Source: a virus
Reading direction: 5' to 3' (one strand)
IMG/VR virus record: IMGVR_UViG_3300027861_000010
Length of the DNA: 64,000 bases
Shown in pieces: positions 33,109 to 61,827 of this stretch (position 1 is the first letter of the stretch; each line of letters opens with the position of its first letter). Made by a program: the position numbers and the translations under genes. Under the pieces are notes generated by a model. It searched no databases. It was not told the origin of the DNA and was given only the letters and a program-made list of their open reading frames with translations.

Positions 33109-33646
33109 ACTTGGAACGTTTGCGGTGATCTACAGTAAGCCCAATTGGGATCAGTACAAGCACGAGACGTCCACGCAGTTAATCGGAGAGCATGTTAACT
33201 TGACTTCCGGTAATGTCAGTTTTCCGAAAGAGCCTGACAATTTTCCTTGCTTAGTTGCATCTATGCTCACACCGGTTGACCCGACCAAGGCTAATGCGTT
33301 CTGTCATTTTCGTGTCAATTGCTGCTTCGTCTATCCTGAGGACGCTAAACGACTACTGGACGCTCAATCTCAATTGGATCACTCGATCGTTTTTGACGAA
33401 CCTGATGAGTCGACTTACCCTGAAGACTATGACGACGAGGGCGGGTACCTGCCCACGCAGACTGGTGTATTGCTCTTGGCTTTAGTTAATGAGCTGGAAG
33501 CGGTTGGAGCCGTCAAACGCGAAAAGCTGCTCAAGGAAGTAGCTGTCGTCGAAGAGTGGTTGATCAATAACCAAGAAGATAATATGGGGGAGCTCTCTCT
33601 GGAGTCAGTCTTGGAACGCATGTGGAGGGACAAAGATGCTCGCTAA
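33098..33646 (+). CDS. Hypothetical protein
   Basis: Co-oriented overlapping ORF. Confidence 0.6.
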   Translation: MKNKLGTFAVIYSKPNWDQYKHETSTQLIGEHVNLTSGNVSFPKEPDNFPCLVASMLTPVDPTKANAFCHFRVNCCFVYPEDAKRLLDAQSQLDHSIVFDEPDESTYPEDYDDEGGYLPTQTGVLLLALVNELEAVGAVKREKLLKEVAVVEEWLINNQEDNMGELSLESVLERMWRDKDAR

Positions 33647-34256
33647 GTTGGATGCTCCAGGTTGGTGGTTTATGGAGTCGCCGCGGACAGGGACGTCAAC
33701 GATTGAGCGAACACTGAAGCATATTTTTCCTGAGGCCAAGGCTGTGTACGCCAAGCATTGGCCCATCCTTCCGCCTGAGGGATTCCTGAAACGATCAGAT
33801 ACGCTCAGTGTTATTTCAGTGCGGAATCCGTACAGCCGAGCAATCAGTTGTTGGCAATACTTCACTCGGCCAGGCGAGTTCACATTCCTTGAATGGACAG
33901 AAAAGCGACTCAAGGAAGGTTGGTTCGATACCCACATTGAAGCTCGGCCTCAGGTTTTTTGGTTCAATCTTTGGAAGTGGGATGTTATCATCGAACAAGA
34001 GAAGCTGGCCGCACATTTCTGGTCGTTTGTCCACAGGATCGACCCCGAAATCGACGCGTTTGAGCTTCACCGGTACAACGACATTAACGGCCAATGGGTG
34101 AATCGAGTGCGAGCCAAGACGCAACGTCATCGCCCTTGGCAGGAGTATTACTGTCCAAAAACGGAAGAAAACATACGAGAATTGTACGCCGCGGACTTCA
34201 TTTGCCTCTCCGATCAGTATCAAAAAGAGTTTCCAGGAATTGTCGCGGCGTCCTAG
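33636..34256 (+). CDS. Sulfotransferase family 2-like protein
   Basis: FMESPRTGTS, SVRNPYSRAISCW, YAADF. Confidence 0.8.
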   Translation: MLAKLDAPGWWFMESPRTGTSTIERTLKHIFPEAKAVYAKHWPILPPEGFLKRSDTLSVISVRNPYSRAISCWQYFTRPGEFTFLEWTEKRLKEGWFDTHIEARPQVFWFNLWKWDVIIEQEKLAAHFWSFVHRIDPEIDAFELHRYNDINGQWVNRVRAKTQRHRPWQEYYCPKTEENIRELYAADFICLSDQYQKEFPGIVAAS

Positions 34257-36219: not shown

Positions 36220-36687
36220 ATGAATTCGCTAACGCAACACCTACCCTGCAAATCTTCAAGCCCCGTACTTGATCAATTTTTGCCCGCTGAGAAGCAGGCA
36301 GAAGAAGACTGGTACATAGGCTCTTCCGACATTGAAGGTCAAGGCGTATTTGCCGGAAAGGATTACGAGGTTGGCGATACAATCGGCTTGGCTATGACGC
36401 CCGGCGACGAGGATGAATGGTCGGCTAAAATCTGGAATTTGACAACCTTGGCTCGTCACTGCAATCATCAAAGCAAGAACAATGTTGAAGTGAAGAAGGT
36501 TGACGGCAAGTTCGATCTGGTTGCATTGCAGCCGATCAGCCAAGATGATGAGCTGGTGTCAGATTACTATCAGGTGTCGCGAACAATGGGTCCACATTCC
36601 CGAATGATGTGGGACGGCAAAGATGTTCCGGTGACTGATCTCGACGGTTACATTGAGAAGGAAAGAGACGAAGATGAAAATACTTGA
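36220..36687 (+). CDS. SET-domain protein-lysine methyltransferase-like
   Basis: [35 protein letters not shown]; EKQA at aa 24-27 precedes the domain. Confidence 0.8.
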
Positions 36688-37246
36688 AATCGGCCCGGGA
36701 ACTGCCGACGGTAAGTCCCTGGTTTTTCCCGACGCAGACACTGCAGATATCCAGGGCTCTGGTCCGACAGCAAAGGTTGAGCTGGGCCAGAGCCCTCTTC
36801 CGTTTGCGGACGAGTCTTACGACCTGGTCTTCATGTCACACATTCTCGAGCACATTCCCTGGTACCGTTCCGTAACAGCCCTACGCGAGGTTCACCGTGT
36901 GTTGAAGCCCGGTGGCGAACTGGAACTCTATGTGCCGGACTTTGCTTTCATTGTGCAGTGCTACCAGGAGCAACGTTGCGGTGATGATTGGCGAATCTTC
37001 AACGACGCTGGCGGGTGGATGACTTGGGTCAATGGTCGTCTTTTCACCTACGGAGAGGATGCAACTGAGTTGCTCAGTAAAGAACGACCGATCCCGCAGA
37101 CACACCACAAAGCCGTGTTCGATGAGCCGTACTTACTGGCTCGACTGGAGGATGCCGGATTCACTAAGGTTCAGGCATTACGCAAGCGGCGTAACGGTAA
37201 AGGACACGGCGTTCGTGAAGCTGGTGCTTTGGGTATCAAGCAATGA
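36674..37246 (+). CDS. Methyltransf_11-like SAM methyltransferase
   Basis: ILEIGPG, DLVFMSHILEH, RVLKPGGEL..VPD. Confidence 0.85.
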   Translation: MKILEIGPGTADGKSLVFPDADTADIQGSGPTAKVELGQSPLPFADESYDLVFMSHILEHIPWYRSVTALREVHRVLKPGGELELYVPDFAFIVQCYQEQRCGDDWRIFNDAGGWMTWVNGRLFTYGEDATELLSKERPIPQTHHKAVFDEPYLLARLEDAGFTKVQALRKRRNGKGHGVREAGALGIKQ

Positions 37247-37821
37247 GAAAACTCGAAATCGGACCACACGAAACACGAAGAACTCCGGACGGTGCACATC
37301 CTTCGTCGTGGGATACCCTTGATGTTGCGTATCAGGCTACCCACAACGCCAAGTGGGGCGACGAACGGTTGCCGATAGCTGATGCAGCGTACGACTGGGT
37401 TCATGCTTCTCACGTTTTGGAGCATTTGACGTGGTGGAAGACGTTGCCTGCCTTGCAGGAGGTTCACCGCATCCTGAAACCTACCGGACGTGTTACCATC
37501 TGGGTGCCGGACGCGATGAAGATCATCCAGATGTACGAGCAAGATCCCGAGCAGTTCTTGAAACTGGAAGCTGATTGGTCTTGTGGCGGCAAGAATCCCG
37601 ACAAGGATCCGTGGGTGTACTTAAACGCTCGCGTTTTTTGGGGGGCTCGTCCTGGCGAGGCCGGACAGGAACAGCATTTCCATCGAGCCATGTTCGGGGA
37701 AGCCTCGTTGCGAGCTGTGTTGGAGAAGGCTGGGTTTAGGAATACCAAACGAATCGAACGCGACTGTCCTAGTGACCCTGGTCACGGTTGGATGGAGGTA
37801 GGGATGGAAGGGTTTCGATGA
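37243..37821 (+). CDS. Methyltransf_11-like SAM methyltransferase (tandem paralog)
   Basis: LEIGP, ASHVLEH, RILKPTG...VPD. Confidence 0.85.
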   Translation: MRKLEIGPHETRRTPDGAHPSSWDTLDVAYQATHNAKWGDERLPIADAAYDWVHASHVLEHLTWWKTLPALQEVHRILKPTGRVTIWVPDAMKIIQMYEQDPEQFLKLEADWSCGGKNPDKDPWVYLNARVFWGARPGEAGQEQHFHRAMFGEASLRAVLEKAGFRNTKRIERDCPSDPGHGWMEVGMEGFR

Positions 37822-39736: not shown

Positions 39737-42031
39737 ATGCTTACAGCAGAAGCCCGTGTGGAGTTGTTGTCTGAAGGCAGTGAAGAACGTCGTAACGGAA
39801 GCCTGACAGTCACGAAACGGAATAGCGATGTTGTTCCGTTCGACGTCCACCGGATTGAGAAGGCCATGCTTGCTTGCATGGTAGATGATCTCAGTTATGA
39901 GTTGGACAAAGCAGAGCCAATTGCGAAGAGTGTTGCCAAGCAGGTTCACAACCTGTTGTGTTTTGAGAAGCAGCCAGTCAGTGTTGAAGTCATTCAGAAT
40001 CTGGTTGAAGCCCAGTTGATGGCTTACGGTTACTATGATGTAGCCAAGCAGTACATTCTCTTCCGCGACGAGAAGCGAAGACTTCGCGAGTCAGCGGAAA
40101 TCCCTGATGAAGTTGTCGAAGCCTTCAAGGCCAATGACAAATACTTCTCTAACGAGATCCAGAAGTTTCAGGCTCTCGACAAGTTTGCTCGGTTCGATCA
40201 TGAACGGGGTCGTCGCGAAACGTGGCCAGAAACTTGTGCCCGTGTCATCAAGTACTTCAAGTGGCACTGCGACAATAAAGGCTACGAAATTACTCCGACA
40301 TATTGGGACCTGTTGGAGCGAAGCCTGCTCGATCTCAAAGCGTCACCCTCGATGCGTTGTGTGCAGATGGCAGGTCCGGCACTGGAGCGGTGCCAGGTCG
40401 GTGTCTACAACTGCTCATTCCAGTTTCTACAAAGCACCCGTGATCTTACCGAAGAGCTTTATGTTCTGATGCAGGGAACGGGTGTTGGCTTTTCAGTGGA
40501 GTACGAGTACGCGACTGAGAAGTTTCCTCGAGTCAAGCGACAGAAGAAGGACGCCGAAGTTGCCACTCACGTCATTGAGGATACGACAGAGGGTTGGTGT
40601 GAGGCATATCGTCTCGGGCTCGATACTTGGTGGGGCGGCCACGATATCAAGTTTGACTTCAGTCAAATTCGTGAAGCCGGTGCTCCGCTCAAGATTAAAG
40701 GCGGCAAGGCATCTGGCCCGGGTCCGTTGAAGGACCTTCTGGAATTTGCCCGTACTCGCATCTTGTTAAAACAAGGTAAGGCCCTTTCCAGTCTCGATCT
40801 CCACGACATCAACTGTTATGCCCACCGCATTGTCCGGATGGGCGGCGTTCGCAGAGCTAGTGGCATATCGTTGACCGATCTTCACGATCGAGAAATGCGG
40901 GATTGCAAGCAGGGCGAGTTTTGGACTCACGACGAGCAGCGAAATCAGGCCAACAATTCTGCCGTCTATAACGAGAAGCCTGATCCGTTGGTTTGGATGG
41001 AAGAGTGGTTAGCGTTGGCTCGAAGCGGGTCGGGAGAGCGAGGCATCTTCAACCGTGGTGCTCTGAAGGCTCAGTTTCCTAAGCGGCGAAAGACACGCGG
41101 TCAACTGTTTGGCACCAACCCTTGTGGTGAGATCATTCTGCGGCACAAGCAGTTCTGTAATCTCTCCATTGCTGTGATTCGTCCGACTGACACGTTGGAG
41201 ACTATTACTGAGAAAGTTATCCTTGCTACGATCTGGGGTACGCTTCAGTCCACAATGACTGATTTCCAGTACATCGGTGACGAATGGAAGAAGAACAGCG
41301 AGGAAGAGCGTTTGCTTGGTGTCGACTTACTCGGCTTCCTTGACCACCCGTTGTTTCAGGATGACGACAAAGCTGGTCCGATCCTGGATGAACTTCGCGA
41401 GGTTGTGAACCGAACCAACCAAGAGTGGGCTGACGCGTTGGGTGTTTCAGCTTCCACAGCTACGACCTGCATCAAACCTTCTGGCGACAGCAGTGTGTTC
41501 TTCGGGACCGCGGCTGGCTTCAAAGGGCACCACGGCGAGCACTATGTTCGTCGTACCCGAGCAAATAACACTAATCCGGTAGCTCAGATGCTGCGGGATG
41601 AAGGTGTTCCTTGCTTTACTGACTATGATGGCAGCGGGTTGGTACTTGAGTTTCCGATGAAGGCACCTAAAGGCGGCGTCTTACTGAAAGATCAAACAGC
41701 TCTGAGTCAGCTGGAGAAGTGGAAAACCTTCAAGCTTCATTGGACAGAGCACAATCCGAGCGTCACGATTTACGTGCGACCGGAAGAATGGCTGGACGTC
41801 GGCAAATGGGTTTACGACAATTGGAATATCGTTGGCGGACTCAGCTTTCTGCCGTATGATGGTGGTGTGTATCACTTGGCTCCGTACGAGGCGATTACTA
41901 AGGAAGACTTCGATAAACGCGTTTCGTTGTTTCCTGAAGTGAACTGGGCCAAGCTTGTTCGTTACGAAAAGTCGGACATGACTGATCTACACCAGCAGGT
42001 TGCGTGTACCGGGGGTGCCTGTGAGATCTGA
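39737..42031 (+). CDS. nrdJ: Class II (AdoCbl) ribonucleotide reductase with ATP cone
   Basis: VTKRNSDVVPFD ATP cone; RRETW, PSMR, YNCSF, GTNPCGEI, TCIKPSG, EHNPSVT, C-terminal ACTGGACEI. Confidence 0.92.
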   Translation: MLTAEARVELLSEGSEERRNGSLTVTKRNSDVVPFDVHRIEKAMLACMVDDLSYELDKAEPIAKSVAKQVHNLLCFEKQPVSVEVIQNLVEAQLMAYGYYDVAKQYILFRDEKRRLRESAEIPDEVVEAFKANDKYFSNEIQKFQALDKFARFDHERGRRETWPETCARVIKYFKWHCDNKGYEITPTYWDLLERSLLDLKASPSMRCVQMAGPALERCQVGVYNCSFQFLQSTRDLTEELYVLMQGTGVGFSVEYEYATEKFPRVKRQKKDAEVATHVIEDTTEGWCEAYRLGLDTWWGGHDIKFDFSQIREAGAPLKIKGGKASGPGPLKDLLEFARTRILLKQGKALSSLDLHDINCYAHRIVRMGGVRRASGISLTDLHDREMRDCKQGEFWTHDEQRNQANNSAVYNEKPDPLVWMEEWLALARSGSGERGIFNRGALKAQFPKRRKTRGQLFGTNPCGEIILRHKQFCNLSIAVIRPTDTLETITEKVILATIWGTLQSTMTDFQYIGDEWKKNSEEERLLGVDLLGFLDHPLFQDDDKAGPILDELREVVNRTNQEWADALGVSASTATTCIKPSGDSSVFFGTAAGFKGHHGEHYVRRTRANNTNPVAQMLRDEGVPCFTDYDGSGLVLEFPMKAPKGGVLLKDQTALSQLEKWKTFKLHWTEHNPSVTIYVRPEEWLDVGKWVYDNWNIVGGLSFLPYDGGVYHLAPYEAITKEDFDKRVSLFPEVNWAKLVRYEKSDMTDLHQQVACTGGACEI

Positions 42032-45854: not shown

Positions 45855-48800
45855 ATGGAACCGCTCACGCCAAATCTGCTTGAGCCTTCGACTCCATCTT
45901 TGCTGTCCTCGGCTCCTATCTCTCCACCAAGTCCTCTGCCTGCTCAGCAGCCAGAGGATGATTTTCGTGAATTCGGTGATACCGACAAGACGCGGTCGAG
46001 CATTTACCAACGAGTGCTCCAGGCGGCTCAGTCAATTGAGCCAATTACCAATGAGCGTCACACTCTGCGATTGACCGGGGTCGACTATCAAGACCCCGAT
46101 CGCGTCAGTAAGCGAGATCAGAAAGCCGCTATCCTGGGCGGGTTAAGTCGAGGCCGGAGGCTCCGAGGAACTTGGGAGCTGATGGATAACGCCACAGGTC
46201 AGGTGCTGGATCAGAAGAAGTCCGTATTGATGACCGTGCCTCACATGACGGAACGAGGTACCTTTATCAACAAAGGGACTGAGTACACGTTGAAGAACCA
46301 GCAACGATTGCTTCCAGGAGTGTATACGCGAGTCCGTGACAACGGTGAGATTGAGTCCCACGCCAATATCATGCCCGGCAAGGGAGTTTCGCACCGTTAT
46401 TTCCTTGACCCAGAGAAGGGTGTATTCAAGATCCGATTGGGTCAAGGCACCGTCGGACTAATGCCACTGCTCAAGGCAATGGGAGCTAAACCGGGGCAGC
46501 TTAAAGAAGCCTGGGGCCGGGACCTTTTTGCGTCAAACTACAACGCAGACGACGCCACAGAGTATAAGAAACTCAAGCAGAAGTTTCTTACAAAGAAGGA
46601 ACTCGAAGGCGAAGAGAACGAACAACGGGAAGCGTTGGTCAACAAGTTTGCCAGCATGGAGATGGATCCGCAGGTCACCAGCCGGACGCTGGGCAAGCCT
46701 CATCAAGGGCTGACACTGGACGCTGTCCTGGATATTACGAAGAAGTTGGTTGCGGTCTCTAAGAATGAGGCCGAGCCAGATGATCGAGACTCACTGACGT
46801 TCCAACAGTTTGTCGGGCCGGAAGATTTGTTCGCTGAGCGAATCAAGCGGGACAAGGGTGGCCTGCGTCGAAATCTGTTGTGGAAGATGTCTGGTAAAGG
46901 CAATCTAAAAGGGATGCCGTCCTCGGCTCTCAATAAACAACTGATGGCCGCGTTGATGACTTCAGGTCTGGGTCAGGCGATCGAAGAGATCAATCCTGCT
47001 GAACTTTATGACAAGTCGACGGCAGTTAGTCGTTTAGGGGAGGGCGGCATTCCTTCAACAGATGCGATCCCGAAAGAAGCTCGGAGTGTCCAACCAAGCA
47101 TGCTGGGCTACATCGACCCAGTGCGAACGCCAGAGTCCGGCAAGGTGGGTGTAGACACTTACTTGGCTCGAGGTGCTCGTAAGGGAAAGGACGGAAAACT
47201 CTACTCACAGTTCCGCGACGTAAAGACAGGGAAACTGCTTTACAAGTCGCCGCAGGATGTGGCGGATATGACCATTGCCTTCCCAGGCAGTATGGATCAA
47301 CGCAGCAAACGAGTTGCAGCCATGCGTAACGGGAAGATGACGTACGTGCCGAAGGATGAAGTTGATCTGGTGTTGCCTTCAATGGAGGAGGCATTTAATC
47401 CGTTGTCCAACATCATTCCTATGAAGAGTCAGGTGAAAGGGCAACGGTTGGTGATGGCGTCTCGAATGACGACGCAAGCCTTGCCGATCGTGGACGCCGA
47501 AGCTCCGTTGGTACAGTCAGCAATTCCGGACACAGATGGCAACCAAAGTTACGAAGAACTGTACTCAAACAATATGGGAGCGTTGCGGGCTCCCCAGGGT
47601 GGTGTTGTCAAAAGTGTTGATGACGACGGGATCACAGTTCGATACGAAGACGGCACCGAGGAAACTCACGATCTGTATCAGAACTTCCCGTTCAACCGAA
47701 AGACGTTCATTCACCAAACTGCAAACGTAAAGCCCGGTGATCAGTTTAAGCCAGATCAGTTGCTGGCCTATTCCAATTACACAGACAAAGGTGGAGCAAC
47801 AGCTCTCGGTAGGAACGCCAGAACCGCTTACATTGCCTGGCAGGGAAAGAACTTTGAAGACGCTGTGGTTGTCTCAGAAAGCTTTGCTCGGAAAATGTCT
47901 TCTGAGCACATGTATCAACACGACTTGGAGGTCGATGATAAGACGAAGGTTGGAAAGAAGCAGTTCATCCAACAGTTCCCAGGTAAGTTCGACAAAGCGA
48001 CACTCGCTAAGCTCGACGAGAACGGAGTCATCAAACCTGGAACTGTCGTGAACTATGGTGATCCTTTGATTCTCGGGGTTACACAGCGAGAAGCGGCCCA
48101 CAACAAGGTTCACAAGAAAGGTCAATCGGGGTTTAACGATGCAACAGTCACTTGGAATCATCACGACGCTGGCACCATTACCGATGTGGTTATGGGCAAA
48201 AAAGGGCCGACTGTCGTTGTTAAAGCATCCTCCCCAACCCAGACCGGCGACAAGCTATCAGGCCGTTACGGTGACAAAGGAGTCATTGCTGACATCATCC
48301 CAGACGGTGAAATGCCGCATAACGGTGATGGTCAGCCCTTTGAAGTGTTACTCAATCCGCTCGGAGTAATCACTCGAACCAATCCGGCTCAGATGGCTGA
48401 GTTACTTCTTGGCAAGATTGCGGCCAAACGCGGCAAGCCGATCAAAGTGCAGGACTTTGACTCCCAGAAGGACATGGCTGCCTGGGTCATGGAGGAACTG
48501 GGCCGGGAAGGCCTATCCGATCTCGAAGATGTCCTCGATCCGTCCAAGGATCAGAAGGTCAAAGGAATCGCTACGGGCAACCGGTTCTTTATGAAGCTGC
48601 ACCACACAGCTGAGTCCAAGGGACAAAGCCGCGGCGGCGGGTCTTACACGATGGAGGACACACCGGCTAAGGGAGGGTCAGAGGGTTCCAAGCGTGTCGG
48701 CATGTTGGATACCAACGCACTGTTGTCTCACGGAGCTACGGCGACTCTGCAAGACGTCAGCTCTGTACGTGGACAGAAGAATGACGAGTACTGGATGCAG

Positions 48801-50339: not shown

Positions 50340-51029
50340 ATGGGCATCAACCCAGAATTGCTGAAGCTGGCTCGCCATAATGTCGGTCAGCAAAAAGTTG
50401 CTTTCGTTCCCGCTGGTGATCCTACAATGGGTGGGGATCCTGCTGCTGGGGGTGCTCCAATGGACCCTGCCGCAGCTGGCGGTGCTCCGCCGATGGATCC
50501 AATGGCCGCAGGCGGAGCTCCACCGATGGACCCGGCTGCTGGCGGCGGTGATCCGCTTGCCGGACTTCAACCGATGATCCAACAAGCTGTTCAGCAGGCT
50601 ATGGCCGCTGGCGGCGGCGGTGGCGGCGGTGCTCCCGGCGAGGCAGCCATCAAGCCAAAGATCGACATCAACGTCGAAGTCATGCAGATGAAGAAACTGT
50701 TGGCCAAGCTGTGCGATGCGATGGGTGTTCAGATTCCAGCCGCTGAAATGGTTGCGACACCTGAAGACCTTAATCAAATGGCAGCAGGCGGTCCCGGGGC
50801 CGCGGCAGCCACTCCGGACGGCGGTGGCGGCATGCCTGGTGGAGATCCGGCAGCTGGCGGCGGAGCCATTCCGCCGATCGAACCGATGAAGGCTGCGGAA
50901 GACTGGGAAGCAGGCGTAGCGTTCACTCCGCCTGCGGCTTACGACTTCCAGAATTCACACTCGACCACAAAGAATACCGCTAACATGGCTGCGGCTATGC
51001 TCCTGCGGAATCGCACAAAGGTCTCTTAA
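50340..51029 (+). CDS. Pro/Gly/Met-rich protein with GGAPPMDP repeats
   Basis: QKVA leader; MDPAAAGGAPP repeats; one folded-looking segment KPKIDINVEVMQMKKLLAKL. Confidence 0.7.
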   Translation: MGINPELLKLARHNVGQQKVAFVPAGDPTMGGDPAAGGAPMDPAAAGGAPPMDPMAAGGAPPMDPAAGGGDPLAGLQPMIQQAVQQAMAAGGGGGGGAPGEAAIKPKIDINVEVMQMKKLLAKLCDAMGVQIPAAEMVATPEDLNQMAAGGPGAAAATPDGGGGMPGGDPAAGGGAIPPIEPMKAAEDWEAGVAFTPPAAYDFQNSHSTTKNTANMAAAMLLRNRTKVS

Positions 51030-51256
51030 TGTTCATTGTTGAGATAGTTGAAGCCATCGGGAAGCCTCCATTACGTGTGGAGGCTTCCCAAGTTGTGGTC
51101 CGTATGCCTGACGGAACGCCCGTTAGTTTGGCCGCACTTTATGGAAGCTCCGAAAGTGTCCTGGTATCGCACTGTGAGGACGAGACTTTTAATGACAACC
51201 TCCGAAAACTAGGACTGAACGATACCGTAATCTCTGAAACCCTGAAGGTGAAATAA
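51029..51256 (+). CDS. Small hypothetical protein
   Basis: TAATG overlap. Confidence 0.6.
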   Translation: MFIVEIVEAIGKPPLRVEASQVVVRMPDGTPVSLAALYGSSESVLVSHCEDETFNDNLRKLGLNDTVISETLKVK

Positions 51257-51257
51257 C

Positions 51258-51986
51258 ATGGCCGGACCACTCCGATCAGCTGACAAGGCGTACTACGCTT
51301 CAAAGCAACCCCTATTTCTTCGCGGCACTCGCGAAGGTCGAAAGAACCCTGCACCCAACCCGTCGTACAAGCAGAAAGCGAACGACGTGACCGCGTCGTC
51401 GAACAAGTATTACGCCGCAATGGAGCCAGTGGCTACTTCGGTTCAGCCTGCCGCAGGTCAGAAACTGCAGACGACGTTCGCTCCAGAAAAGGTCGCTACG
51501 CTTCAGGCAAAGGCACAGGTCTTGCCGGACGTAGTTGCTGCCTTTCAAGGTGGAGCCACAACCGTACGTATCGAAGGTGAGTCCGCAGACATCAACAAGT
51601 CACGAGCCGCGGTTGAAATGGCTGTTGGACGTAAGACGCTGACACGGGAGCAGTCTGACCGTGTTGTTTTTGTCCCGGTACAAAAGCCCGCCACTTCTAA
51701 CGAGGTGGAGGTAGTAAGTACCGAAGAAGCCCCAGCCGTTCCTGTTGAAGCGGAAGCCATTTTGAATCCACCTGCGGAAGTCACGAAAACGCCAAAGAAG
51801 AAGACGACACGTAAGAAGACGACCAGGAAGAAGAAGACCAACACTGCTGCGGATGTTCCTGCAAGTGTTCCTGCAGAAGTGCAGGAACCGGCAGCGGAAG
51901 ATGATTCAGTGACTGAAGCTGACATTGCAAGTGCATTCGGAGTCGCGGACGACTCGGATGATTTCGATGCTGACAGTGACGATTAA
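51258..51986 (+). CDS. Hypothetical protein with histone-H1-like KKTTRKK tract and acidic tail
   Basis: PKKKTTRKKTTRKKKTN; C-terminal DDSDDFDADSDD. Confidence 0.7.
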   Translation: MAGPLRSADKAYYASKQPLFLRGTREGRKNPAPNPSYKQKANDVTASSNKYYAAMEPVATSVQPAAGQKLQTTFAPEKVATLQAKAQVLPDVVAAFQGGATTVRIEGESADINKSRAAVEMAVGRKTLTREQSDRVVFVPVQKPATSNEVEVVSTEEAPAVPVEAEAILNPPAEVTKTPKKKTTRKKTTRKKKTNTAADVPASVPAEVQEPAAEDDSVTEADIASAFGVADDSDDFDADSDD

Positions 51987-51998
51987 GTGAGTTTGTGA

Positions 51999-54900
51999 AT
52001 GCTCAACACTACAGTTGGACAACTGCTGGTCAACGAGGCCCTTCCTGACGAGCTTCGCGATTACAATCGCGTGCTCGACAATAAGGGTATGCATGCACTG
52101 CTCCAACAAGTGGCTCGAGAGCATCCAGACAAGTACCGTGAAGTTTCATTCAAGTTGAATCAGGTTGGTCAACGTTCCGCCCAAGACCAGGGCGGAATGT
52201 CGTTTAGTGCTCGACACCTGAAGCGTTCGCCGTATGCGAATGAAACTCGATCACGCATTCAGGCTCAACTGGGTAAGGTACTTGACGACGATTCCTTAAC
52301 TGACGAGCAGCGAGCGGCCAAAGTTGTTCGTATTGTTGGCAAAGAGATGGAACCTCAACAGAAGGCAATTCTGGAGGAGGCCATCAAAGACAAAAATCCC
52401 CTAGCGATGCAGGTGCTATCAGGTAGCCGCGGGAAGCCAATGAACTTGGCCAGCCTGTTGGGTGCTGACATGTTGTACTCAGATCATCGCGACGAGGTAA
52501 TTCCGATTCCGGTACTTCGCAGTTACAGCGAAGGGCTGACACCTGAAGAATACTGGGCCGGAACGTACGGAGCTCGTCGCGGCATTATCGCAACGAAGTT
52601 CGCCACTCAGGAAGCTGGTTTCTTATCTAAGCAGCTCAACCAGGCTGGACACCGGCTGGTGGTGATGGATGAAGAGGGCGAGGATGACGATCGCCGCGGT
52701 ATGGTTGTCGATACGGACGACATGGATAACGAAGGGTCATTACTGGCCCGCGACATGGGACCGTACAAGCGAAATACTCCGCTGACACCGAAGATTCTCA
52801 AGCACTTAAAGCGTCTCGGTAAAAACCGGATTTTAATCCGATCACCGCTGGTTGGCGGCTCGCCGGAAGGTGGAGTCTATGCTCGGGATGTCGGTATTCG
52901 AGAGACTGGTAAGTTGCCTGGCCGCGGCGAACAGGTCGGCTTGCAAGCAGCACAGGCATTAAGTGAACCGATCAGCCAAGGCCAATTGTCGGCTAAACAC
53001 TCGGGCGGCGTTGCTGGCCAAGAGAAAGCTGTCGGCGGTTTCCAGGCAATCAACCAGCTGATCCAGGTACCCAAGAAGATGCAAGGCGGAGCCGCTCACT
53101 CAGAAAAGGACGGCATCGTCCAACGAGTGGAGAAAGCTCCGGCTGGCGGACACTACGTCACGATCAACGATAAGCAACATTACGTTGGAGAAGGTTTTGA
53201 CGTCAAAGTCAAAAAGGGCGACGAAATCGAAGCGGGCGATCTGCTGAGTAACGGCATTCCTAATCCGGCCCTGATCGTGAAGTACAAGGGCGTAGGCGAA
53301 GGTCGTCGTTACTTTGTTAATGAGTTCCGCAAGGCGATGGCCGGAGGCGGAATGCAAGGGCATCGTCGTAACATCGAGCTGCTGGCTCGCGGACTCATCA
53401 ATCACGTCAAGATGACCGACGAGACTGACGAGCATGCTCCGGACGATATTATTCCTTACTCAACATTGGAGCACACCTATAAGCCGAGAGGAGACTCTCA
53501 GTTGTTGGCTCCAAAGAAAGCCGTCGGACAATACTTAGAGCGTCCGGTATTGCACTACACCATCGGCACCAAGATCCGCCCTTCGATGTTGAAAGACTTC
53601 GAGGAGTTCGGCATCACCGACTTGCCAGTCCATAAAGAACCACCTCCGTTCCAGCCGCACATGGTTCGAGGGATGTATACACTTCAACATGACCCAGACT
53701 GGATGACCCAGATGTACGGGTCTGGACTGAAGAAGAGTCTGTTGAATTCCACTGCTCGTGGTGCAACCAGCGATGCTCGAGGAACCAGTTTTGTTTCCAG
53801 TCTGGCTGAAGGCTCTGATTTCGGTGAGGTTGCAGATCGTGCTGTGATTCAGCCGAAGCCTTCGTACGAGTTGCCTAAGATTGAGCCACCTGCTCCTGAG
53901 GAAGAAAAGCTTCCGGCTCCTGCCGCTCCGCCTACACCGTCGTTCTTCGGTGGTCGGTTCAAGACTGGTATGCATAAACAGGCTGAGGAACCCAAAGTTC
54001 CGACAGCACCAAAAACGCCAGCAACGCAATCGCTTGCTGCACCATTGGCACCGACACCTGCTCCGACTGGGGCAGGTAATATGTCGTCGAATATCATGCC
54101 TTCGTCAGGACCTACAGCTCAGGATTTCATGCCAGCACCGGGTCAGTTGGGTTCACAAGAGAATCCCAACGGCATTATGCCTCCGGATCAGTTGCAGCAG
54201 TATGCTCAGAATGCTCAACAGCAGAATGACCGCGGGATGCGGATGGTGGGTGTAGACCCGATGTCTGATCCGTTCAGAACGCAGACAACTGCGGCAACGC
54301 CTCCGCCGTCAACTCCAGCTCAAGCCCGAGCCGACCAGGTACAGCAACAACGTAGCTACGGTAGTGGCAACACTCAAACGGATATGCGGACTTTGTTCGC
54401 TCAGGCACCTTCGAGAACCTTAGCTGGTAACTCCCTGGCACGGAAGATGCGTCGAGGGGATGCTCGTACAATGGGGATCCAGGCAGCTCGACAACGTGCT
54501 CAACAGATACAGAACGAGCAAGCTGCTCGCCGGAATCTGTACCAACAGGCCCACCCACAGCGAGCTTATGACCCTATACCGGGGCCGTCAGTCGCGGGAC
54601 CATTACCTGCAGAGCAGTCACAAAGTCCCGTACCGGCAACTGGCGAGATGGGTTATGGTGACGTGGCTGGCACTTTACTTGCCGGACAACATGCCTGGAC
54701 GCAAGGCGGTAGAGTTTGGAATGCGGCGGCTAAAGGTGAAATGCTTACGCACGGTTCACAGCTAGGCAAGTCACTCAATCCTGGAGCACAGAAAGGCGTT
54801 CAGACGGTAAATCAGTTGGCCCGTACCGCAGCACACAAGACCCCAGGACTCGGACGCTTTGTTGCTGCCACAAGTGATGATGCCGCCCGGGCTGCTGGAG

Positions 54901-55886
54901 CAAGCAGCAAAGGACTCTCAAAGGCCCTTGGTCCTGCTGCTTTTGTGTTGGAAGGTGGGCTTATCGGGAAAGACATTTACGATAAGACACAAGAAGGGCA
55001 ATCGTTTGGTCGGGCCTGGAAAGAGCAGGCGGATGAGCACGGAGCTAATACTCGAGGCCTGTTTACTGACTGGGATGGCGGTGCTCACGAGATATATCAG
55101 AAACCTATTGATGTGGCGATGCATGTGCTGAGCCCGGTAGCTACTGTGCAGGAAGGAACACAATTGGCCGCCGAAGTCGGCGGCGGTCTCGGAGATATGG
55201 CCACAGGTGCGTGGAACTTCGCGTCGGATGCTGAGGGACGTAACCGGGCAGCAGCAAAAGCCGAAACCGAACAAATGATGGCTGATCGCCAGGAGGCTCT
55301 ATCAGGAGAGCAGGACCAGATCCGGTCAACGCTGGAAAATAATAAAACAATCTCGCCGATGCAGAAAGAAGAGTTACGCCAACGCTCTGCCGAGTTAGAC
55401 TTACGGAAGCAGGAAGCCCAGTTGAAAGCTGACGCGGCCACGGACGAAACAGAAGGCTGGCAGCTCGGTAAGCAACACACATTTGGTACTGGTGGACATT
55501 ACTTTCGTGACGCAATGGCCGGGACAGGGAACCGGCTTTCAGCGAAAATCGAAAAATTACAGGCTAACCAGGATAGTCTGACACCAGAACAACAGTTCGA
55601 TTTGAAGAATATGATTCGCAGGCGTGACGAGATGAAGAGGCTGGGAGACTTTTACAGTCGCGAAGTTGGCTATTTTGGTGAAGGAGATTTCACTAAAATT
55701 ATGCGAATCCGTGTGCGAAACATAAAAGTCCAGTCAGTGGAACTCGCCCGGCGACTACGCGAGCCTGCTGTAAAAGGGAACCCTCAGCTTACAATGGAGT
55801 TGGAAGCTGAGATGCGACATCAACAAACCCGCCTTGCAAACATGAAAAGCTGGGCTAGACAGGCCAAGAATCAGAAGGTCAAGTAG
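51999..55886 (+). CDS. rpoC: RNA polymerase beta' C-terminal half (aa 1-~610) fused to a ~630-aa Pro/Gln/Gly-rich extension
   Basis: TTVGQLL, SGSRG, bridge helix EGLTPEEY..GARRG..T..AGFL, trigger loop GLQAAQALSEP..Q..KHSGG; HKQA at aa 659-662 precedes the non-RNAP tail. Confidence 0.9.
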   Translation: MLNTTVGQLLVNEALPDELRDYNRVLDNKGMHALLQQVAREHPDKYREVSFKLNQVGQRSAQDQGGMSFSARHLKRSPYANETRSRIQAQLGKVLDDDSLTDEQRAAKVVRIVGKEMEPQQKAILEEAIKDKNPLAMQVLSGSRGKPMNLASLLGADMLYSDHRDEVIPIPVLRSYSEGLTPEEYWAGTYGARRGIIATKFATQEAGFLSKQLNQAGHRLVVMDEEGEDDDRRGMVVDTDDMDNEGSLLARDMGPYKRNTPLTPKILKHLKRLGKNRILIRSPLVGGSPEGGVYARDVGIRETGKLPGRGEQVGLQAAQALSEPISQGQLSAKHSGGVAGQEKAVGGFQAINQLIQVPKKMQGGAAHSEKDGIVQRVEKAPAGGHYVTINDKQHYVGEGFDVKVKKGDEIEAGDLLSNGIPNPALIVKYKGVGEGRRYFVNEFRKAMAGGGMQGHRRNIELLARGLINHVKMTDETDEHAPDDIIPYSTLEHTYKPRGDSQLLAPKKAVGQYLERPVLHYTIGTKIRPSMLKDFEEFGITDLPVHKEPPPFQPHMVRGMYTLQHDPDWMTQMYGSGLKKSLLNSTARGATSDARGTSFVSSLAEGSDFGEVADRAVIQPKPSYELPKIEPPAPEEEKLPAPAAPPTPSFFGGRFKTGMHKQAEEPKVPTAPKTPATQSLAAPLAPTPAPTGAGNMSSNIMPSSGPTAQDFMPAPGQLGSQENPNGIMPPDQLQQYAQNAQQQNDRGMRMVGVDPMSDPFRTQTTAATPPPSTPAQARADQVQQQRSYGSGNTQTDMRTLFAQAPSRTLAGNSLARKMRRGDARTMGIQAARQRAQQIQNEQAARRNLYQQAHPQRAYDPIPGPSVAGPLPAEQSQSPVPATGEMGYGDVAGTLLAGQHAWTQGGRVWNAAAKGEMLTHGSQLGKSLNPGAQKGVQTVNQLARTAAHKTPGLGRFVAATSDDAARAAGASSKGLSKALGPAAFVLEGGLIGKDIYDKTQEGQSFGRAWKEQADEHGANTRGLFTDWDGGAHEIYQKPIDVAMHVLSPVATVQEGTQLAAEVGGGLGDMATGAWNFASDAEGRNRAAAKAETEQMMADRQEALSGEQDQIRSTLENNKTISPMQKEELRQRSAELDLRKQEAQLKADAATDETEGWQLGKQHTFGTGGHYFRDAMAGTGNRLSAKIEKLQANQDSLTPEQQFDLKNMIRRRDEMKRLGDFYSREVGYFGEGDFTKIMRIRVRNIKVQSVELARRLREPAVKGNPQLTMELEAEMRHQQTRLANMKSWARQAKNQKVK

Positions 55887-56229: not shown

Positions 56230-56258
56230 GCCGGGAGCTGCTGCTCATGGAAGGAACC

Positions 56259-58772
56259 ATGCATACTTCAATTATTACAAAATCTGCCAACCTTGGCGGC
56301 AGTGGTGGCGAGACGGAATTTGAACAAGCATTTTCCAGCCTCGCATACGCTTACCTGCGGGACAAAGCTCCTCGATTGCTCGACCACATGGTCGGCTTTC
56401 AGCTTGTCGACCGCAACGAAGACAACACCAAAGCCATGGGGATCTTCGGATTCCAGATCGATAAGCAGTGGCTTTATGCTCCCGTCTTCTTCCTGAACGG
56501 TGACCTCAAGGGTCATGAGTTGTTGTACATGAAGAACAACGACTCCTTCGTTCCGATGAAGGAGAACTGGATCAACTACATCATGAGCCGCAAGCCTCAT
56601 GTATTGGGCGAGTCCTCTTCAGATCAACTGCGGGATCTTGGAGGCATCTACCCTGATATCCGGTCGCTTTCGATACCGCCTTCGGTTGGCGGCGGTAAGC
56701 GAGCATCGGATCAGGAGTGGCTGAAAGACGCTATGCCGATGCTGGCTGCGTTCAAAGTCAAAGCTGCCAGCTCGCTTTTCCCTGGAGCTGGAAACCGCAA
56801 ACTTAACCAGGCAGCTGTCGTCGAAGCTCCGCTTACTGCGGCATTGACCAAGCACGCTCAAAATCTGGATTTTAACCAGATCATGCCGACCAGCTTGGAA
56901 TTGATGAAGCAGGCACACGACATCGCTGAGATGTATCCGACCATTAAGCAGGCGATGCAGAAGTTCTACGGCGTCGATTGTTTCAGCCGATGGGGCCGAG
57001 AGTATCGCGATAACACGGCCAAAGAGGCTGGCAACATCATGCCAGAGAAGCGGGCTGCCGCTCGGCCATACATGCCTGGCAATTTGCTGATTCCTACGGA
57101 GCGACCGGCTGGTCCCGTCGACCACGAAAAATCCGGCAAGCTCCGGATGTATGTTTACGAAGAAGTCATTGTCAGCAAGGCTCCGGAGTTGGACGAGGAC
57201 GAGCGTGAGCGTCTACAGAAAGACACCGTCCTGATTAAGGATCACCGCGAAGGGGAAGAAGTCAGCAAGGCCTACAATACTCAGGTCGAAGCCAAACTGA
57301 CGAATCCCTCAGAGACCGCCCTCTACCGTGTGTTGGTTAAGCCGGGCGAGTTCAAAAAGATGCTGATCGCCATGAACGGCTCCAGCAATCGAGGTCGTGA
57401 AGCCATGGCGACAGTTGTCCGCCTGGAAGATAACGGCGACGGATCGAACAAGGCCTGGTTGAATACGCACCCGACCAATGTTTTCGCTGATCAGATCAGT
57501 GAACGTGATGAGTGGGAAGAGTGGTTCAACGGATTGGGCGATTCAAGTTCGCTGACTGAAGGTGCTGAGTACATCGCAGTCGCAGAGAACGGTTCAACCT
57601 CGGTGCCATTTACCGTGCAGTCCAGTTACGGCGATGATCGTTATCGTGTTGATTTCCGTACCGACATTAACTGGAACGAGACTCGACCAGCCACGATGCC
57701 TCGTGTTGCTGCTAACCGTTTCGATCAGTACGGTGACGACCAGGACCGGGCTCCGTCGCCGTACGGGGCAATGCTTTACATCAACAAGGAAGGCAAGAAG
57801 GGCACCAAGATTCGAGCGATCGGTGGCGAACTTCGCATTCCAGAGGACTTCAAGTTCCTTAAACTCAAAAGCCCACAGAAGTCGAAACCTGGCGAGCTCA
57901 TGTGTTGTAGCGATTACGAGACTCGTAGCGACATGCCGCCTATCAATCTCGGAAAGATCGACGACATCCAGTTGCTCTTCCACGAGAAGACAGCTCGATT
58001 GAAGGTTTTCAACAACGGCACTGACGTGTATATCTCGTCGCCGTTGGGTGAGCAGTGTCTATCTAAGAAGTCTGCTCTACTGAACCTGGTCGGTACGCAT
58101 GGCTTTCGTGAAAAGGTTGCCCGGGAGATTCTGACTTACGCCGAACAGAAAGGTAACGCGGTTTACCGTGCGTCTTATGCTCCCGGCTATGGGCCTGAAA
58201 AACAAGCTGCTCCGAACAGAAGTATGCTGGCTGGCGGGCCAAGTGCTCCGATGTACGATGACTTTGCCAACGAGCAGAGTGTGGAAGAATACGGTCCTCG
58301 AACGGCTGTACCAACTCAGTACGGTAGCGAGCAGGCTTACCGTGTCGACAGCATGACAGCAGATCAGACCGATCCGGCAGTATGGGACAATTGGCAGAAC
58401 TATTCTGCTGAGGATTTCCAAAGCAGCATGCAGGTTGCTCAGCAGGCCGGTGCCGAAGGTCAGAAAGAGGTTTTCGACACTTCGATGATCTCTGGAATGC
58501 TCAAGTCCGTTCGACAGGATTCGCTTGTTGAGCGACATCTTGGTAGTCTGGTCGAAGCGTTGGACGCTCTTGGGCGTTTGATCATGAACTTCTACTGGCA
58601 CCAGGAGGAGTTTGAAGATCGTTACGGTAAGAGCGATTTACCTGAACTGGAAGACAGCTTGCGGAATGCATTCGAGTCCCTGGGTGACATCACTCTGTTC
58701 CTCAAAGAGAAAACTATCGAATCGCCGTTCGACGAAGGCGATGTCGATCTCGAAGAAACTGCAAGGAATTAA
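56259..58772 (+). CDS. Large KxA-rich putative structural protein of unknown function
   Basis: AAGGA RBS; about 12 KxA; folded-looking N-terminus (VGFQLVD..GIFGF..PVFFLNG) and helical C-terminus. Confidence 0.75.
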   Translation: MHTSIITKSANLGGSGGETEFEQAFSSLAYAYLRDKAPRLLDHMVGFQLVDRNEDNTKAMGIFGFQIDKQWLYAPVFFLNGDLKGHELLYMKNNDSFVPMKENWINYIMSRKPHVLGESSSDQLRDLGGIYPDIRSLSIPPSVGGGKRASDQEWLKDAMPMLAAFKVKAASSLFPGAGNRKLNQAAVVEAPLTAALTKHAQNLDFNQIMPTSLELMKQAHDIAEMYPTIKQAMQKFYGVDCFSRWGREYRDNTAKEAGNIMPEKRAAARPYMPGNLLIPTERPAGPVDHEKSGKLRMYVYEEVIVSKAPELDEDERERLQKDTVLIKDHREGEEVSKAYNTQVEAKLTNPSETALYRVLVKPGEFKKMLIAMNGSSNRGREAMATVVRLEDNGDGSNKAWLNTHPTNVFADQISERDEWEEWFNGLGDSSSLTEGAEYIAVAENGSTSVPFTVQSSYGDDRYRVDFRTDINWNETRPATMPRVAANRFDQYGDDQDRAPSPYGAMLYINKEGKKGTKIRAIGGELRIPEDFKFLKLKSPQKSKPGELMCCSDYETRSDMPPINLGKIDDIQLLFHEKTARLKVFNNGTDVYISSPLGEQCLSKKSALLNLVGTHGFREKVAREILTYAEQKGNAVYRASYAPGYGPEKQAAPNRSMLAGGPSAPMYDDFANEQSVEEYGPRTAVPTQYGSEQAYRVDSMTADQTDPAVWDNWQNYSAEDFQSSMQVAQQAGAEGQKEVFDTSMISGMLKSVRQDSLVERHLGSLVEALDALGRLIMNFYWHQEEFEDRYGKSDLPELEDSLRNAFESLGDITLFLKEKTIESPFDEGDVDLEETARN

Positions 58773-59426: not shown

Positions 59427-60452
59427 TTGAAGGTTTACAGGGACGTAAAATTAGCTGATCCTTTCTTAAGGCCAAACTGGCGACACGAGCGTGTTGTCAA
59501 GATGCTTGATAGTGTGCCGCCGGAACGTGTCAAGCGAACTGACGACGAGTGGATTGCTGGTTACAAGAAGTTCTTGCAGCAGTGGAGCAAAAGCGAAGCT
59601 AACCGGGACAAGCTCCTGTACGACAACCCTGGGTTGTACTTCGCTTACGTCATGTTCGATCGAATGTTCACGGAGCCTGAGCTTCGACTTATGATCGAAG
59701 CTCGGCTACTATCTGGCCTGACATACGCGGATATCGCAGAAGAATGTAAGACGATTCCGGAAACCATACAGTGGTATGAGCGGCTGTTCTTCAATGTGAT
59801 TGAGTTTTTACCCAACCACGATTGGATAATGAAGCACGTTCTCTTGCCATCCTCCGACCGTTTCGTGCAAGATGATACCGCGGATGATGACGAAGAAGTC
59901 GCCTTTGCCCCTAAACCTTCCAATGAAGTCGTCCGACCTCATCTTGATATGACGTTGAAGTTCTTCGCTTATTATGGTGGTCCAATGGTTTGCGACCAGA
60001 TGATCAGCGGATTCCGGCGAGATAAGCGAGTCACCTCGCATGAAGATCTTCCAGAGTATTTCCACGAACAATTCATGTCTCAAGTAACGCGTCGAAGTGC
60101 TCAGTCGTCAGGGCAATTCGAGATCAACAAGTACAACGTGATGGAGTTGTTCGCGACTCACACTAGAATTATCGAGATTCAACGATCGGCTGAGAGTGCG
60201 GAAGATCGTCACAACGAGTTTGAGAAACACGTCAATGCGATGTTGACTGAACTGCCATGGACTGTCGGCCTCGAAAGCAAGAAACTGTATGAAGGTTCTG
60301 AAATCGGGAAGTTCGACGCAGGTGCGTCTGAGCTGAACGAGGAAGAACTGATGCTATTCGGGTCGGGCAGAGAGCCGGAGTCGTTGGATGATGTTGCCGG
60401 TCTGACCATATCCAGCCGGAAGGAGCCGGAGAATAATGCAAAGTCTAAGTAA
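59427..60452 (+). CDS. Hypothetical helical protein
   Basis: TTG start after AGGAG; long ORF. Confidence 0.7.
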   Translation: MKVYRDVKLADPFLRPNWRHERVVKMLDSVPPERVKRTDDEWIAGYKKFLQQWSKSEANRDKLLYDNPGLYFAYVMFDRMFTEPELRLMIEARLLSGLTYADIAEECKTIPETIQWYERLFFNVIEFLPNHDWIMKHVLLPSSDRFVQDDTADDDEEVAFAPKPSNEVVRPHLDMTLKFFAYYGGPMVCDQMISGFRRDKRVTSHEDLPEYFHEQFMSQVTRRSAQSSGQFEINKYNVMELFATHTRIIEIQRSAESAEDRHNEFEKHVNAMLTELPWTVGLESKKLYEGSEIGKFDAGASELNEEELMLFGSGREPESLDDVAGLTISSRKEPENNAKSK

Positions 60453-61827
60453 ATCTGATGAGCAGTTGCTGCTCGATGGCGTCAAGCAGGCGGTGGCCTT
60501 GGTGGATAACCAAGATCTATCGCCAAATGCTGCGATGCATAAGGTGGCTGAGGAGTTACAGTACTCCCCAGGCTTCCTCAAGGCAGCATGCAACGCGTTC
60601 AACAACGGGCGACAACTTGCCCAGTGGAACGCCAATGACTCCGTGTTGGATAAGTTGGCCAGCTTCCCGCTCGCCAATTACGACGAGATCCACGATACGA
60701 TGTGGGGTACGACACAGGAGAAGGTCGCATCTGTTTCATCGTTCGGCCCTAAGTTCGACACGTACGAAGAGCAATCTCGGCGGGAACTGTTGAACATGGA
60801 CCTGTCGAGCTTTGAGAAAGCCGCATCAGATGCTCCTGAAGTGCATCCGTTGGTGGCGGACGAACACGCTGATATGCGGTCCAAGCGAGCCTACTCTGAT
60901 TTTGAGTTCGCTCGGAGGGAGCTGGAAGAAGCTCGCCGCGAGAAGTCGTCCAATGACGACCGACTCAACCTGAAGATGCACTTGCTGGAGAATTACTTCC
61001 GCAAGTTTGCTTATGATCGTTTGCCGTTTGCCCAAGTAGAGCACGGCGTAGCGACTTATTTCGGGGAGCCCGGTAAAGCTCTGATGGGCTACATCGCCGA
61101 GCGATTTCCTCGAGAGAAGCGAGCTTCGGACCACCAATCAACTTGGGATGGTTTTCAGCAGCCGGTGAATCGACGACAAGAACCCTACGCTCTGATCGCT
61201 GATTGCATCAAGCAAGCCAAGGATCTGTATGCGGCCACAGTTCAACTCGCTGCCGCTGAGGAAAAGTTCGCCAAAGCAAAGGAAGGTGTTGCCCCTTTTT
61301 CACAACCCCGATCCCCAGAGTCGAATGGGAGCCAGCCTACCCTGACTCCATCGTTGATTGCTGATGGATCGGGGGAAAAGCAGGCCAACATTTTTGGAGG
61401 CATCGCTGGAGGCATGGGGCTTGGAGCTGCTAGGTCCATGACCGAAGGACTGGGCAGCGACCCGGAAGCTCGGATCGAGAAGCAGATTTCTGAACTGGAA
61501 AGCCCCGACCATCTGAACGAGATGCGAAAGATTCGAGCTCAGACCGTATTGACTCAGCTGATGAGCGATCCTGACAGCCCGCTCAGCGGCTACGATCCGG
61601 AAGAAGTGCTGACCGCATACAATGAAATGGTGCAACTGTCGCCCCGATTAGCAGATCAACCTGCGGCCATTGCTCCGCTCCTCAACAAGCGGTTGATGGG
61701 TAACACTGAGCCTTTCGAGGTTGGCGAGCAAGTCAAACTCGAGAAGGGACTCAAGGACGTACAGGCCCCACAGTCAGCACCCAAACCAGTGGACTTGATG
61801 AAAAATGAAGCCAGTATCATTAGCTGA
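60436..61827 (+). CDS. Putative scaffold-like pro-protein, KxA-rich N-terminal two-thirds
   Basis: 12 of the first 20 Lys are in KxA; helical/coiled-coil character; lies upstream of the protease. Confidence 0.65.
   Translation: MQSLSKSDEQLLLDGVKQAVALVDNQDLSPNAAMHKVAEELQYSPGFLKAACNAFNNGRQLAQWNANDSVLDKLASFPLANYDEIHDTMWGTTQEKVASVSSFGPKFDTYEEQSRRELLNMDLSSFEKAASDAPEVHPLVADEHADMRSKRAYSDFEFARRELEEARREKSSNDDRLNLKMHLLENYFRKFAYDRLPFAQVEHGVATYFGEPGKALMGYIAERFPREKRASDHQSTWDGFQQPVNRRQEPYALIADCIKQAKDLYAATVQLAAAEEKFAKAKEGVAPFSQPRSPESNGSQPTLTPSLIADGSGEKQANIFGGIAGGMGLGAARSMTEGLGSDPEARIEKQISELESPDHLNEMRKIRAQTVLTQLMSDPDSPLSGYDPEEVLTAYNEMVQLSPRLADQPAAIAPLLNKRLMGNTEPFEVGEQVKLEKGLKDVQAPQSAPKPVDLMKNEASIIS

Follow-up and report, generated by a model that had tools for sequence, protein, structure and literature searches.

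What is a conserved, non-polymerase protein doing at the end of a viral RNA polymerase subunit, and does it stay there? The question is raised by the open reading frame (ORF) 51999..55886 (+) of IMG/VR virus record IMGVR_UViG_3300027861_000010, from which a stretch of 64,000 nucleotides was analyzed (the window; a one-strand region of an uncultured large phage, GC ca. 52%, few family matches). The ORF is uninterrupted and encodes 1295 amino acids (aa). The best explanation is a two-module precursor, composed of the C-terminal half of RNA polymerase (RNAP) β′ (β′C, aa 1 to ca. 657) and a conserved tail protein (aa ca. 663–1295), with a Lys-x-Ala (K-x-A) motif, KQA, at the seam. That this precursor is packaged in the virus head, where the head protease cleaves it at KQA, is a proposal to which we give about an even chance of being right.

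A polymerase subunit and a second protein in one reading frame

The polymerase part was recognized by Pfam RNA_pol_Rpb1_5, which matched aa 179–478 with 71.4 bits (gathering threshold 28.5). The closest cultured relatives of β′C are gp216 of Salmonella phage Arash (606 aa) and 0264 of Vibrio phage D69 (609 aa). Alignments with these proteins by tblastn, starting at aa 5 and 125 of the query, stop at aa 609–610, in agreement with an earlier note on this DNA that had placed the end of RNAP homology near aa 610. The Pro-rich linker and the HKQA sequence at aa 659–662 described in that note are also present: aa 611–662 contain 21% Pro and the codon of K660 begins at nucleotide (nt) 53976, where the feature in the note started. 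All its descriptive statements hold, including the lack of K-x-A in the 633-aa tail (0 found, 4.0 expected from composition; P = 0.012 by shuffles). Along the tail the composition changes from P/Q/A/T-rich (aa 663–800) through A/Q/R-rich (aa 801–900) and A/G-rich (aa 901–1076) to helical and R/E/K/Q-rich (aa 1077–1295).

An assembly artefact was ruled out as the cause of the fusion: full-length fused homologues recur in at least six other, independent samples, so the fusion is real. A word-indexed search with the tail gave three such homologues with 36–45% tail identity. Exhaustive profile searching of cluster representatives gave 30 tail homologues in the library, several of which are stand-alone proteins of 616–748 aa without a Pfam domain.

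The tail is a separate gene in relatives

In the split contigs L005/L006, L012 and L013, β′C (658–665 aa where complete) ends in FFGGKF(E/Q)VGN(SG/NK/K), with the stop codon 5–6 residues beyond FFGG(R/K)F. The first bases of L007 encode the same β′C end (NVGNK and a stop). The tail gene of split contigs begins 2–5 nt past the β′C stop, with MDDITKIA, MDKQAL (L012) or MDQTQAPKPA. Since these relatives encode the tail as a gene of its own that starts at the seam, the tail is an independent module, and M658 of the fused protein is equivalent to the Met at which the separate gene starts. The partner that the earlier note had predicted to become a separate entity exists as one in relatives. Fused and split forms differ by the loss of a few codons, the stop codon among them, and the 2–5 nt spacing suggests that β′C and tail genes may be translationally coupled.

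In a maximum-likelihood tree of the conserved C-terminal domain of the tail, all known split forms fall in one group (support 80–85 / 85–91) and fused forms are found on several deep branches, 0.5–1.8 substitutions per site apart. One old fusion and one fission would fit this tree, the root of which is not established. The tail gene is always the next after β′C, either fused or after the short gap, even in L008, which has no head module downstream. This constant linkage argues that the tail works with the polymerase.

The seam motif

At the seam K-x-A is retained in eight of nine fused forms as KQA, KKA or KLA, across deep divergence and amid an indel-rich linker. Four close fused proteins share an invariant FFGG(R/K)FKxGM(H/D)KQA with indel-rich sequence on both flanks, and FFGG(R/K)F is common to the close fused forms and four split contigs. 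More distant fused seams read GMHKKA (P0029), FFGGRYKLAEEP (P0016, with a four-residue deletion and without the Met) and FFDLKYKQAQ (P0030). Five fused forms conserve M658; P0016 and P0030 lack a Met at the seam and still have K-x-A. Three of six stand-alone tails have K-x-A within their first ten residues and the other three have none there. The ninth fused form is P0156 (L014 1272–4766, seam FFGGRFKLGSSDSQ..), the tail of which is also free of K-x-A and which has no Cys at all.

One fused protein, P0026 of L008 (L008 8459–10912), contains a third module. An inorganic pyrophosphatase domain (PF18823, Pfam E = 5e-56) lies between β′C and tail, in the order β′C end, NIMPEGVKLA, pyrophosphatase, MAKKAD, linker and tail, with KLA before and KKA after the inserted enzyme. 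As read from the sequence, this is the layout of a three-module polyprotein with K-x-A at both joints. The RNAP genes of L008 are broken by frameshifts, which are probably assembly errors.

Properties of the tail module

The tail family as a whole has ca. 10 internal K-x-A sequences versus ca. 80 expected, an approximately 8-fold depletion. The homologues are not statistically independent, yet the depletion is still present in branches at 25–48% identity. This scarcity would fit selection to withstand a K-x-A-specific protease. Structure prediction by AlphaFold2 (AF2; 31 sequences) indicated that aa 663–1076 are mostly disordered, with a predicted local distance difference test score (pLDDT) mostly below 50, and that aa 1077–1295 are all-helical (pLDDT mostly above 90). 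The tail thus consists of ca. 410 predicted disordered residues and a 220-aa helical domain. This C-terminal domain is the region matched in all 30 library homologues and carries the conserved motifs DET..W.LGKQH.FGGGHYFRDA, REVGYFG.GDF and REPAV. The disorder of the tail and its avoidance of K-x-A argue for a location in the prohead, where it would be exposed to the protease and have to withstand it. The tail contains no Cys.

Searches for known relatives of the tail gave little. No family was found in Pfam (E ≤ 1) or PHROGs, and no DNA-binding or sigma-like families were matched in family and fold searches. A tblastn search of 50,697 phage records, Arash and D69 included, gave no match, nor did a search of the Arash and D69 genomes with the tail profile, which was flagged as uninformative. 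Scanning IMG/VR for tail relatives produced none and a metagenome scan gave one extra locus, L014. Fold searches (Foldseek against PDB and BFVD; VIA-align wide; Atlas) returned generic helical hairpins and bundles only, the best match having a Z of 10.3, which is under the level meaningful for helical folds, with TM ≤ 0.35. Scores in an ESM-Atlas feature search were ≤ 0.85.

Two suggestions of the earlier note found no support. The tail was said to resemble neighboring virion-like proteins, and the tail-family hidden Markov model found no paralogue among all window proteins; any likeness is at most one of composition. A role as membrane tether or ejection conduit is unsupported and speculative, as the tail has no transmembrane-grade segment (best 19-residue Kyte-Doolittle mean 1.07 at aa 972–990, a segment that contains Glu).

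Most tail homologues have the sequence NIMP, or in some cases NLMP, in their disordered N-region (aa 698–701, nt 54090–54101 in the window). The same four residues occur in the K-x-A-rich N-region of an 841-aa portal candidate (GNIMPEKRA, 57033–57044), at aa 171 of the fused β and β′ N-terminal half (β-β′N, 46365–46376), and in relatives at L005 10061 and 12855 and at L008 8687. The chance expectation for NIMP in the window is ca. 0.05, and it may be a docking motif.

K-x-A in head-module proteins

The proteins encoded from position 55972 onward form a head module in which K-x-A is strongly overrepresented. With expectations computed from each protein's own composition, K(i)-A(i+2) ranks first among 400 residue pairs (45 versus 16.9 expected, z 6.9), whereas the other 56 window proteins have it about as often as expected (74 versus 68). 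In the head-module proteins, spacings of 1 and 3–6, the reverse order, and the pairs R.A, K.S and K.G did not exceed expectation, unlike K(i)-A(i+2). It is also the top pair in the head modules of L003 (64 observed, 20.1 expected), Arash (44/19.7) and D69 (50/20.7), and the enrichment in L005 is similar (60/22.6). Only a few proteins of Arash and D69 can be aligned to those of the window, with 25–38% identity. In a comparison of the window with L003, L004, L005 and L010 the sites keep their positions and differ in the middle residue. In this lineage, Arash and D69 the head-morphogenesis proteins share K-x-A as a specific, conserved motif.

The sites are concentrated in an acidic scaffold-like protein, a protease candidate (17–20 sites), the first ca. 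270 residues of the portal candidate and the N-terminal two thirds of a 463-aa protein. Their pooled context is (L/M/F)-(E/V)-K-x-A-(S/A). In the Arash major capsid protein LVKEA↓G occurs at aa 25–30 (K-x-A at aa 27–29; the arrow marks the position of a known or predicted cut) and the only other site is five residues from the end. Prohead-protease motifs of T4, phiKZ and SPN3US are distributed likewise, including a long portal propeptide and protease self-cleavage (PMC10052503, PMC5694885). From this pattern we infer that K-x-A is the recognition site of a head-maturation protease. The ORF under study carries the same motif at the proposed cut, aa 660–662, with the flank consensus matched only partly.

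Capsid-maturation serine proteases such as herpesvirus assemblin and the phage prohead proteases (T4 gp21, S77/S78/S80) recognize short motifs shared by scaffold, portal, capsid and the protease itself. The assemblin cut site is (V/L/I)-x-A↓S, a precedent for Ala at P1 and Ser at P1′. Lys at P3 is not known to us from any phage protease described so far.

Head-module genes and a protease candidate

The coordinates of the modules and neighboring genes are collected in Table 1. Most K-x-A sites of the portal candidate, which is weakly similar to Arash structural protein gp218, are conserved in L003 and L004. Those of the 463-aa protein are conserved at ca. 40% overall identity, again with a variable middle residue. 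The protease candidate is homologous to Arash gp222 and D69 0270 (36–39% identity), is located in the head module, and has invariant residues that include H62, NRNGD, H103 and S166. The nearest named ESM-Atlas clusters are Peptidase_S77/S80 (0.90–0.91), a match at lead level only, and a PDB sequence search with the candidate gave no match. Its family has more than 1000 metagenome members, none of them annotated, on contigs of up to ca. 236 kb.

Table 1. Coordinates of the fused ORF and of RNAP and head-module genes in the window
Feature	Position	Strand	Basis
RNAP β′ C-terminal half, catalytic-core part, aa 1–610	51999..53828	+	Pfam and tblastn; ca. 80% identity among close relatives
Pro-rich linker, aa 611–657, ending in FFGGRFK (aa 649–655, nt 53943–53963)	53829..53969	+	Composition, alignment
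Seam M-H-K-Q-A, aa 658–662; KQA is the candidate protease site	53970..53984	+	Alignment
Tail N-region, aa 663–1076: indel-rich P/Q/A/T low-complexity linker, then A/Q/R-rich and A/G-rich segments	53985..55226	+	Alignment indels, AF2
Tail C-terminal domain, aa 1077–1295 and stop: conserved helical bundle/hairpin, hallmark of the tail family	55227..55886	+	AF2, profile matches
RNAP β fused to β′ N-terminal half (β-β′N), 1484 aa	45855..50309	+	Pfam Rpb2_3, Rpb2_6, Rpb1_1, Rpb1_2
Head-module protein, 841 aa, portal candidate; K-x-A clusters at aa 12–268 and 581–652	56247..58772	+	13 K-x-A versus 4.4 expected
Head-module protein, 463 aa; 12 K-x-A in aa 17–318, none beyond	60436..61827	+	12 versus 3.2 expected
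Prohead-protease candidate, N-terminal 321 of 491 aa	63036..64000	+	12 K-x-A versus 2.4 expected

Three Cys residues of the protease candidate (C176, C179 and C190; homologue at L003 21341–22816) are invariant and follow directly after the invariant SMAC serine. C195 and C200 are found in most homologues and are absent in Arash and D69. This cluster suggests a putative metal-binding insert. The gene after the protease candidate in relatives (L005 20513–21832; L010 13716–14945) encodes a very acidic low-complexity protein of 409–439 aa with 9–11 K-x-A sequences and a conserved basic C-terminus (..YIQEVLERSRR), which gives it the profile of a putative scaffolding protein.

The polymerase and its possible packaging

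The Pfam domains of β-β′N show that the partner that supplies β and the N-terminal half of β′ is present. This protein has 31% identity to Arash gp206 and D69 0261 and contains K-x-A at the expected frequency (10 versus 10.4). No second RNAP was found among the window ORFs. Together the two large RNAP proteins (1484 + 1295 aa, 2779 residues, tail included) contain no Cys, as is also the case in L005, L010 and P0156. Other window enzymes have 1–3% Cys and the RNAP subunits of Arash and D69 have 1–4 Cys. When Arash virions were analyzed by mass spectrometry, gp206 was the most detected protein and gp216 the fifth (PMC10585845). The absence of Cys, the adjacency to head genes and the avoidance of K-x-A in the tail are consistent with packaging of the RNAP without proving it.

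Three small ORFs are located between β-β′N and β′C, at 50340–51029 (229 aa), 51029–51256 (75 aa) and 51258–51986 (242 aa), in an order that all relatives share. A single Cys is present in the 229-aa protein, which has K-x-A at aa 9 and 19; the other two have no Cys. The three are candidates for extra RNAP subunits or for co-packaged proteins with short N-terminal propeptides. Elsewhere in the window, the proteins encoded at 1447–4278 (943 aa, one Cys, with a NUDIX domain at aa ca. 100–235) and 4431–7124 (897 aa, no Cys) may also be packaged.

Proposed maturation and alternative explanations

In the proposed pathway the β′C-tail precursor would enter the prohead along with the rest of the RNAP. 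The head-maturation protease would recognize K-x-A and cut the precursor at KQA↓E, which would yield mature β′C and a free, protease-resistant internal head protein that remains with the polymerase. The free tail protein would be a candidate encapsidation or ejection helper, and the RNAP would be a virion enzyme delivered with the DNA. A broader version, possible but on balance doubtful, is that the tail is a dedicated capsid-loading and ejection adaptor with genetically attached cargo: β′C, in one lineage also the pyrophosphatase. An undescribed Lys-x-Ala head protease would then free the cargo in the prohead.

Several observations weigh against cleavage and packaging. The earlier note had asked whether homologues keep the tail and the K-x-A junction; the fused form P0156 has no K-x-A at or near the seam, where it reads FFGGRFKLGSSDSQQAAYK, so an uncut fusion may be viable. 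The window seam lacks the commonest flanks of head sites (E/V at −1, S/A at +3), and two flank-scoring matrices disagreed on its rank (99th versus 61st percentile), so their results were dropped. Since the RNAP core carries K-x-A at chance frequency (12 versus 13.4), the motif alone is insufficient for cutting. The 491-aa protein is no more than a candidate for the protease: its AF2 model had a pLDDT of 33 and was unusable, and hhalign against T4 gp21 was non-significant, with matched stretches of just 7–14 residues. Contamination may have contributed to the detection of the Arash RNAP, as the preparation held 116 proteins including metabolic enzymes (PMC10585845), and Arash has no BLAST-detectable homologue of the tail.

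The first alternative is a permanent fusion, in which the tail is an uncut C-terminal extension of β′C, for example an encapsidation or ejection anchor as in phage N4, and the seam K-x-A is a relic or has another use. We consider this a realistic although somewhat unlikely explanation. P0156 and the deviating seam flanks speak for it, and since M658-K-Q-A agrees with the N-terminus encoded by the separate L012 gene (MDKQA), shared ancestry could explain the motif. Moreover, N- and C-terminal domains of the N4 virion RNAP serve injection and encapsidation (PMC4496689, citing unpublished data). Against it, the seam K-x-A has been kept in eight of nine fused forms although indels occurred and the middle residue varies, also in P0016 and P0030 where the Met was lost, and the motif decays in the split clade. 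Relatives also work with two separate proteins, and the three-module form has K-x-A at both joints.

Alternatively, the tail could be a cytoplasmic transcription factor or extra RNAP subunit that acts in promoter specificity or regulation and became fused to its partner, with the polymerase remaining unpackaged and the seam motif unrelated to head maturation. This would agree with the gene order, in which the tail follows β′C even in L008 where a downstream head module is missing, with the conserved helical bundle of the C-terminal domain, and with the fact that gene fusion usually signals physical or functional association. However, the ca. 8-fold depletion of K-x-A is left unexplained if the tail never meets the head protease, and the long P/Q-rich region of ca. 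410 predicted disordered residues and the lack of a match to DNA-binding or sigma-like families also count against this explanation. The lack of Cys in the RNAP block and the abundance of RNAP subunits in the Arash virion also argue against it, and we regard this explanation as quite unlikely. Less probable still is internal initiation at M658 as an ancestral start codon, by which the fused ORF would also give free tail without proteolysis: M658, kept in five fused forms, is the homologue of the Met with which the split genes start, but no Shine-Dalgarno-like sequence precedes the window ATG, the GTAGGGAAT-type purine-rich stretch of split genes being absent there (AAGACTGGT-ATG), and P0016 and P0030 lost the Met and kept K-x-A.

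Comparison with known systems

Packaging of a multisubunit RNAP and its proteolytic maturation, as proposed here for β′C and its tail, have precedent in phiKZ-like phages. The virion RNAP (vRNAP) of SPN3US is a head ejection protein (PMC10052503), and the prohead protease removes a 275-aa propeptide from the vRNAP β subunit of 201phi2-1 (PMC5694885). Like the polymerase described here these are multisubunit enzymes with split β and β′; theirs are packed in the head and ejected, as is proposed in the present case. In those phages, too, portal, scaffold and protease carry the same short cleavage motif (PMC5694885, PMC10052503). The differences are that their propeptides are N-terminal with the motif (A/S/G)-x-E, whereas the part considered here is C-terminal, 633 aa long and preceded by K-x-A, and that the RNAP is split differently, here into a β-β′N fusion and β′C. 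Because of its C-terminal position, its length, its conservation and its existence as a free protein in relatives, the appended part resembles a second mature product more than a propeptide that is discarded. In tblastn searches at E ≤ 1e-5 Arash, D69, Rhizobium, Ralstonia and other phages were matched and no phiKZ-like record was; PHROG matches were to generic 'RNA polymerase beta subunit' families.

The closest cultured homologues are Arash gp206/gp216 and D69 0261/0264, with 25–31% identity. They have the same arrangement of a β-β′N fusion and a separate β′C, with RNAP genes beside the head module and the same K-x-A enrichment in head proteins. Unlike the window protein, their β′C ends at ca. 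606–609 aa, without a Pro linker, FFGG motif or tail. A functional parallel is provided by the N4 virion RNAP (gp50), in which a polymerase core is flanked by large non-catalytic regions for encapsidation and injection and which is ejected and transcribes early genes (PMC4496689). That enzyme is a single-subunit T7-like protein of 3500 aa with unrelated sequence, for which no cleavage is described in PMC4496689. Membership of the N4-type virion RNAPs was ruled out since the polymerase here is of the multisubunit β/β′ type, and the resemblance is functional only.

Head-packaged multisubunit RNAPs and the trimming of a vRNAP subunit by a prohead protease are already known. Four points differ in the present case: the Arash-like RNAP lineage, the conserved second protein at the C-terminus in place of a discarded propeptide, the fusion/fission polymorphism that exposes the seam, and the predicted K-x-A specificity.

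Other window genes and implications

Upstream of the virion and RNAP block the window encodes a 764-aa ribonucleotide reductase (39737–42031) with an ATP-cone and a B12-dependent class II insertion domain. Two sets of paralogues were noted. One consists of the genes at 7456 and 8060 (28% identity; 7456–8719) with a weaker link to that at 33636 (33636–34256), and the other of the genes at 36653 and 37243 (35% identity; 36653–37821).

Virion-borne multisubunit RNAPs have so far been known mainly from phiKZ-like phages, and it is an unsolved problem how enzymes of this size are brought into proheads and driven through the phage tail. The natural fusion/fission pair described here ties an RNAP subunit to a conserved, presumably protease-resistant and largely disordered partner, with K-x-A as a candidate cleavage code that applies to Arash and D69, both of them cultured, as well. 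Members of the lineage are frequent in metagenomes, and if the reading is true many dark-matter head genes would be annotated at once. If the tail is indeed an adaptor for attached cargo, this would be a natural 'cargo polyprotein' system that delivers an early-transcription machine in a widespread uncultured jumbo-phage lineage.

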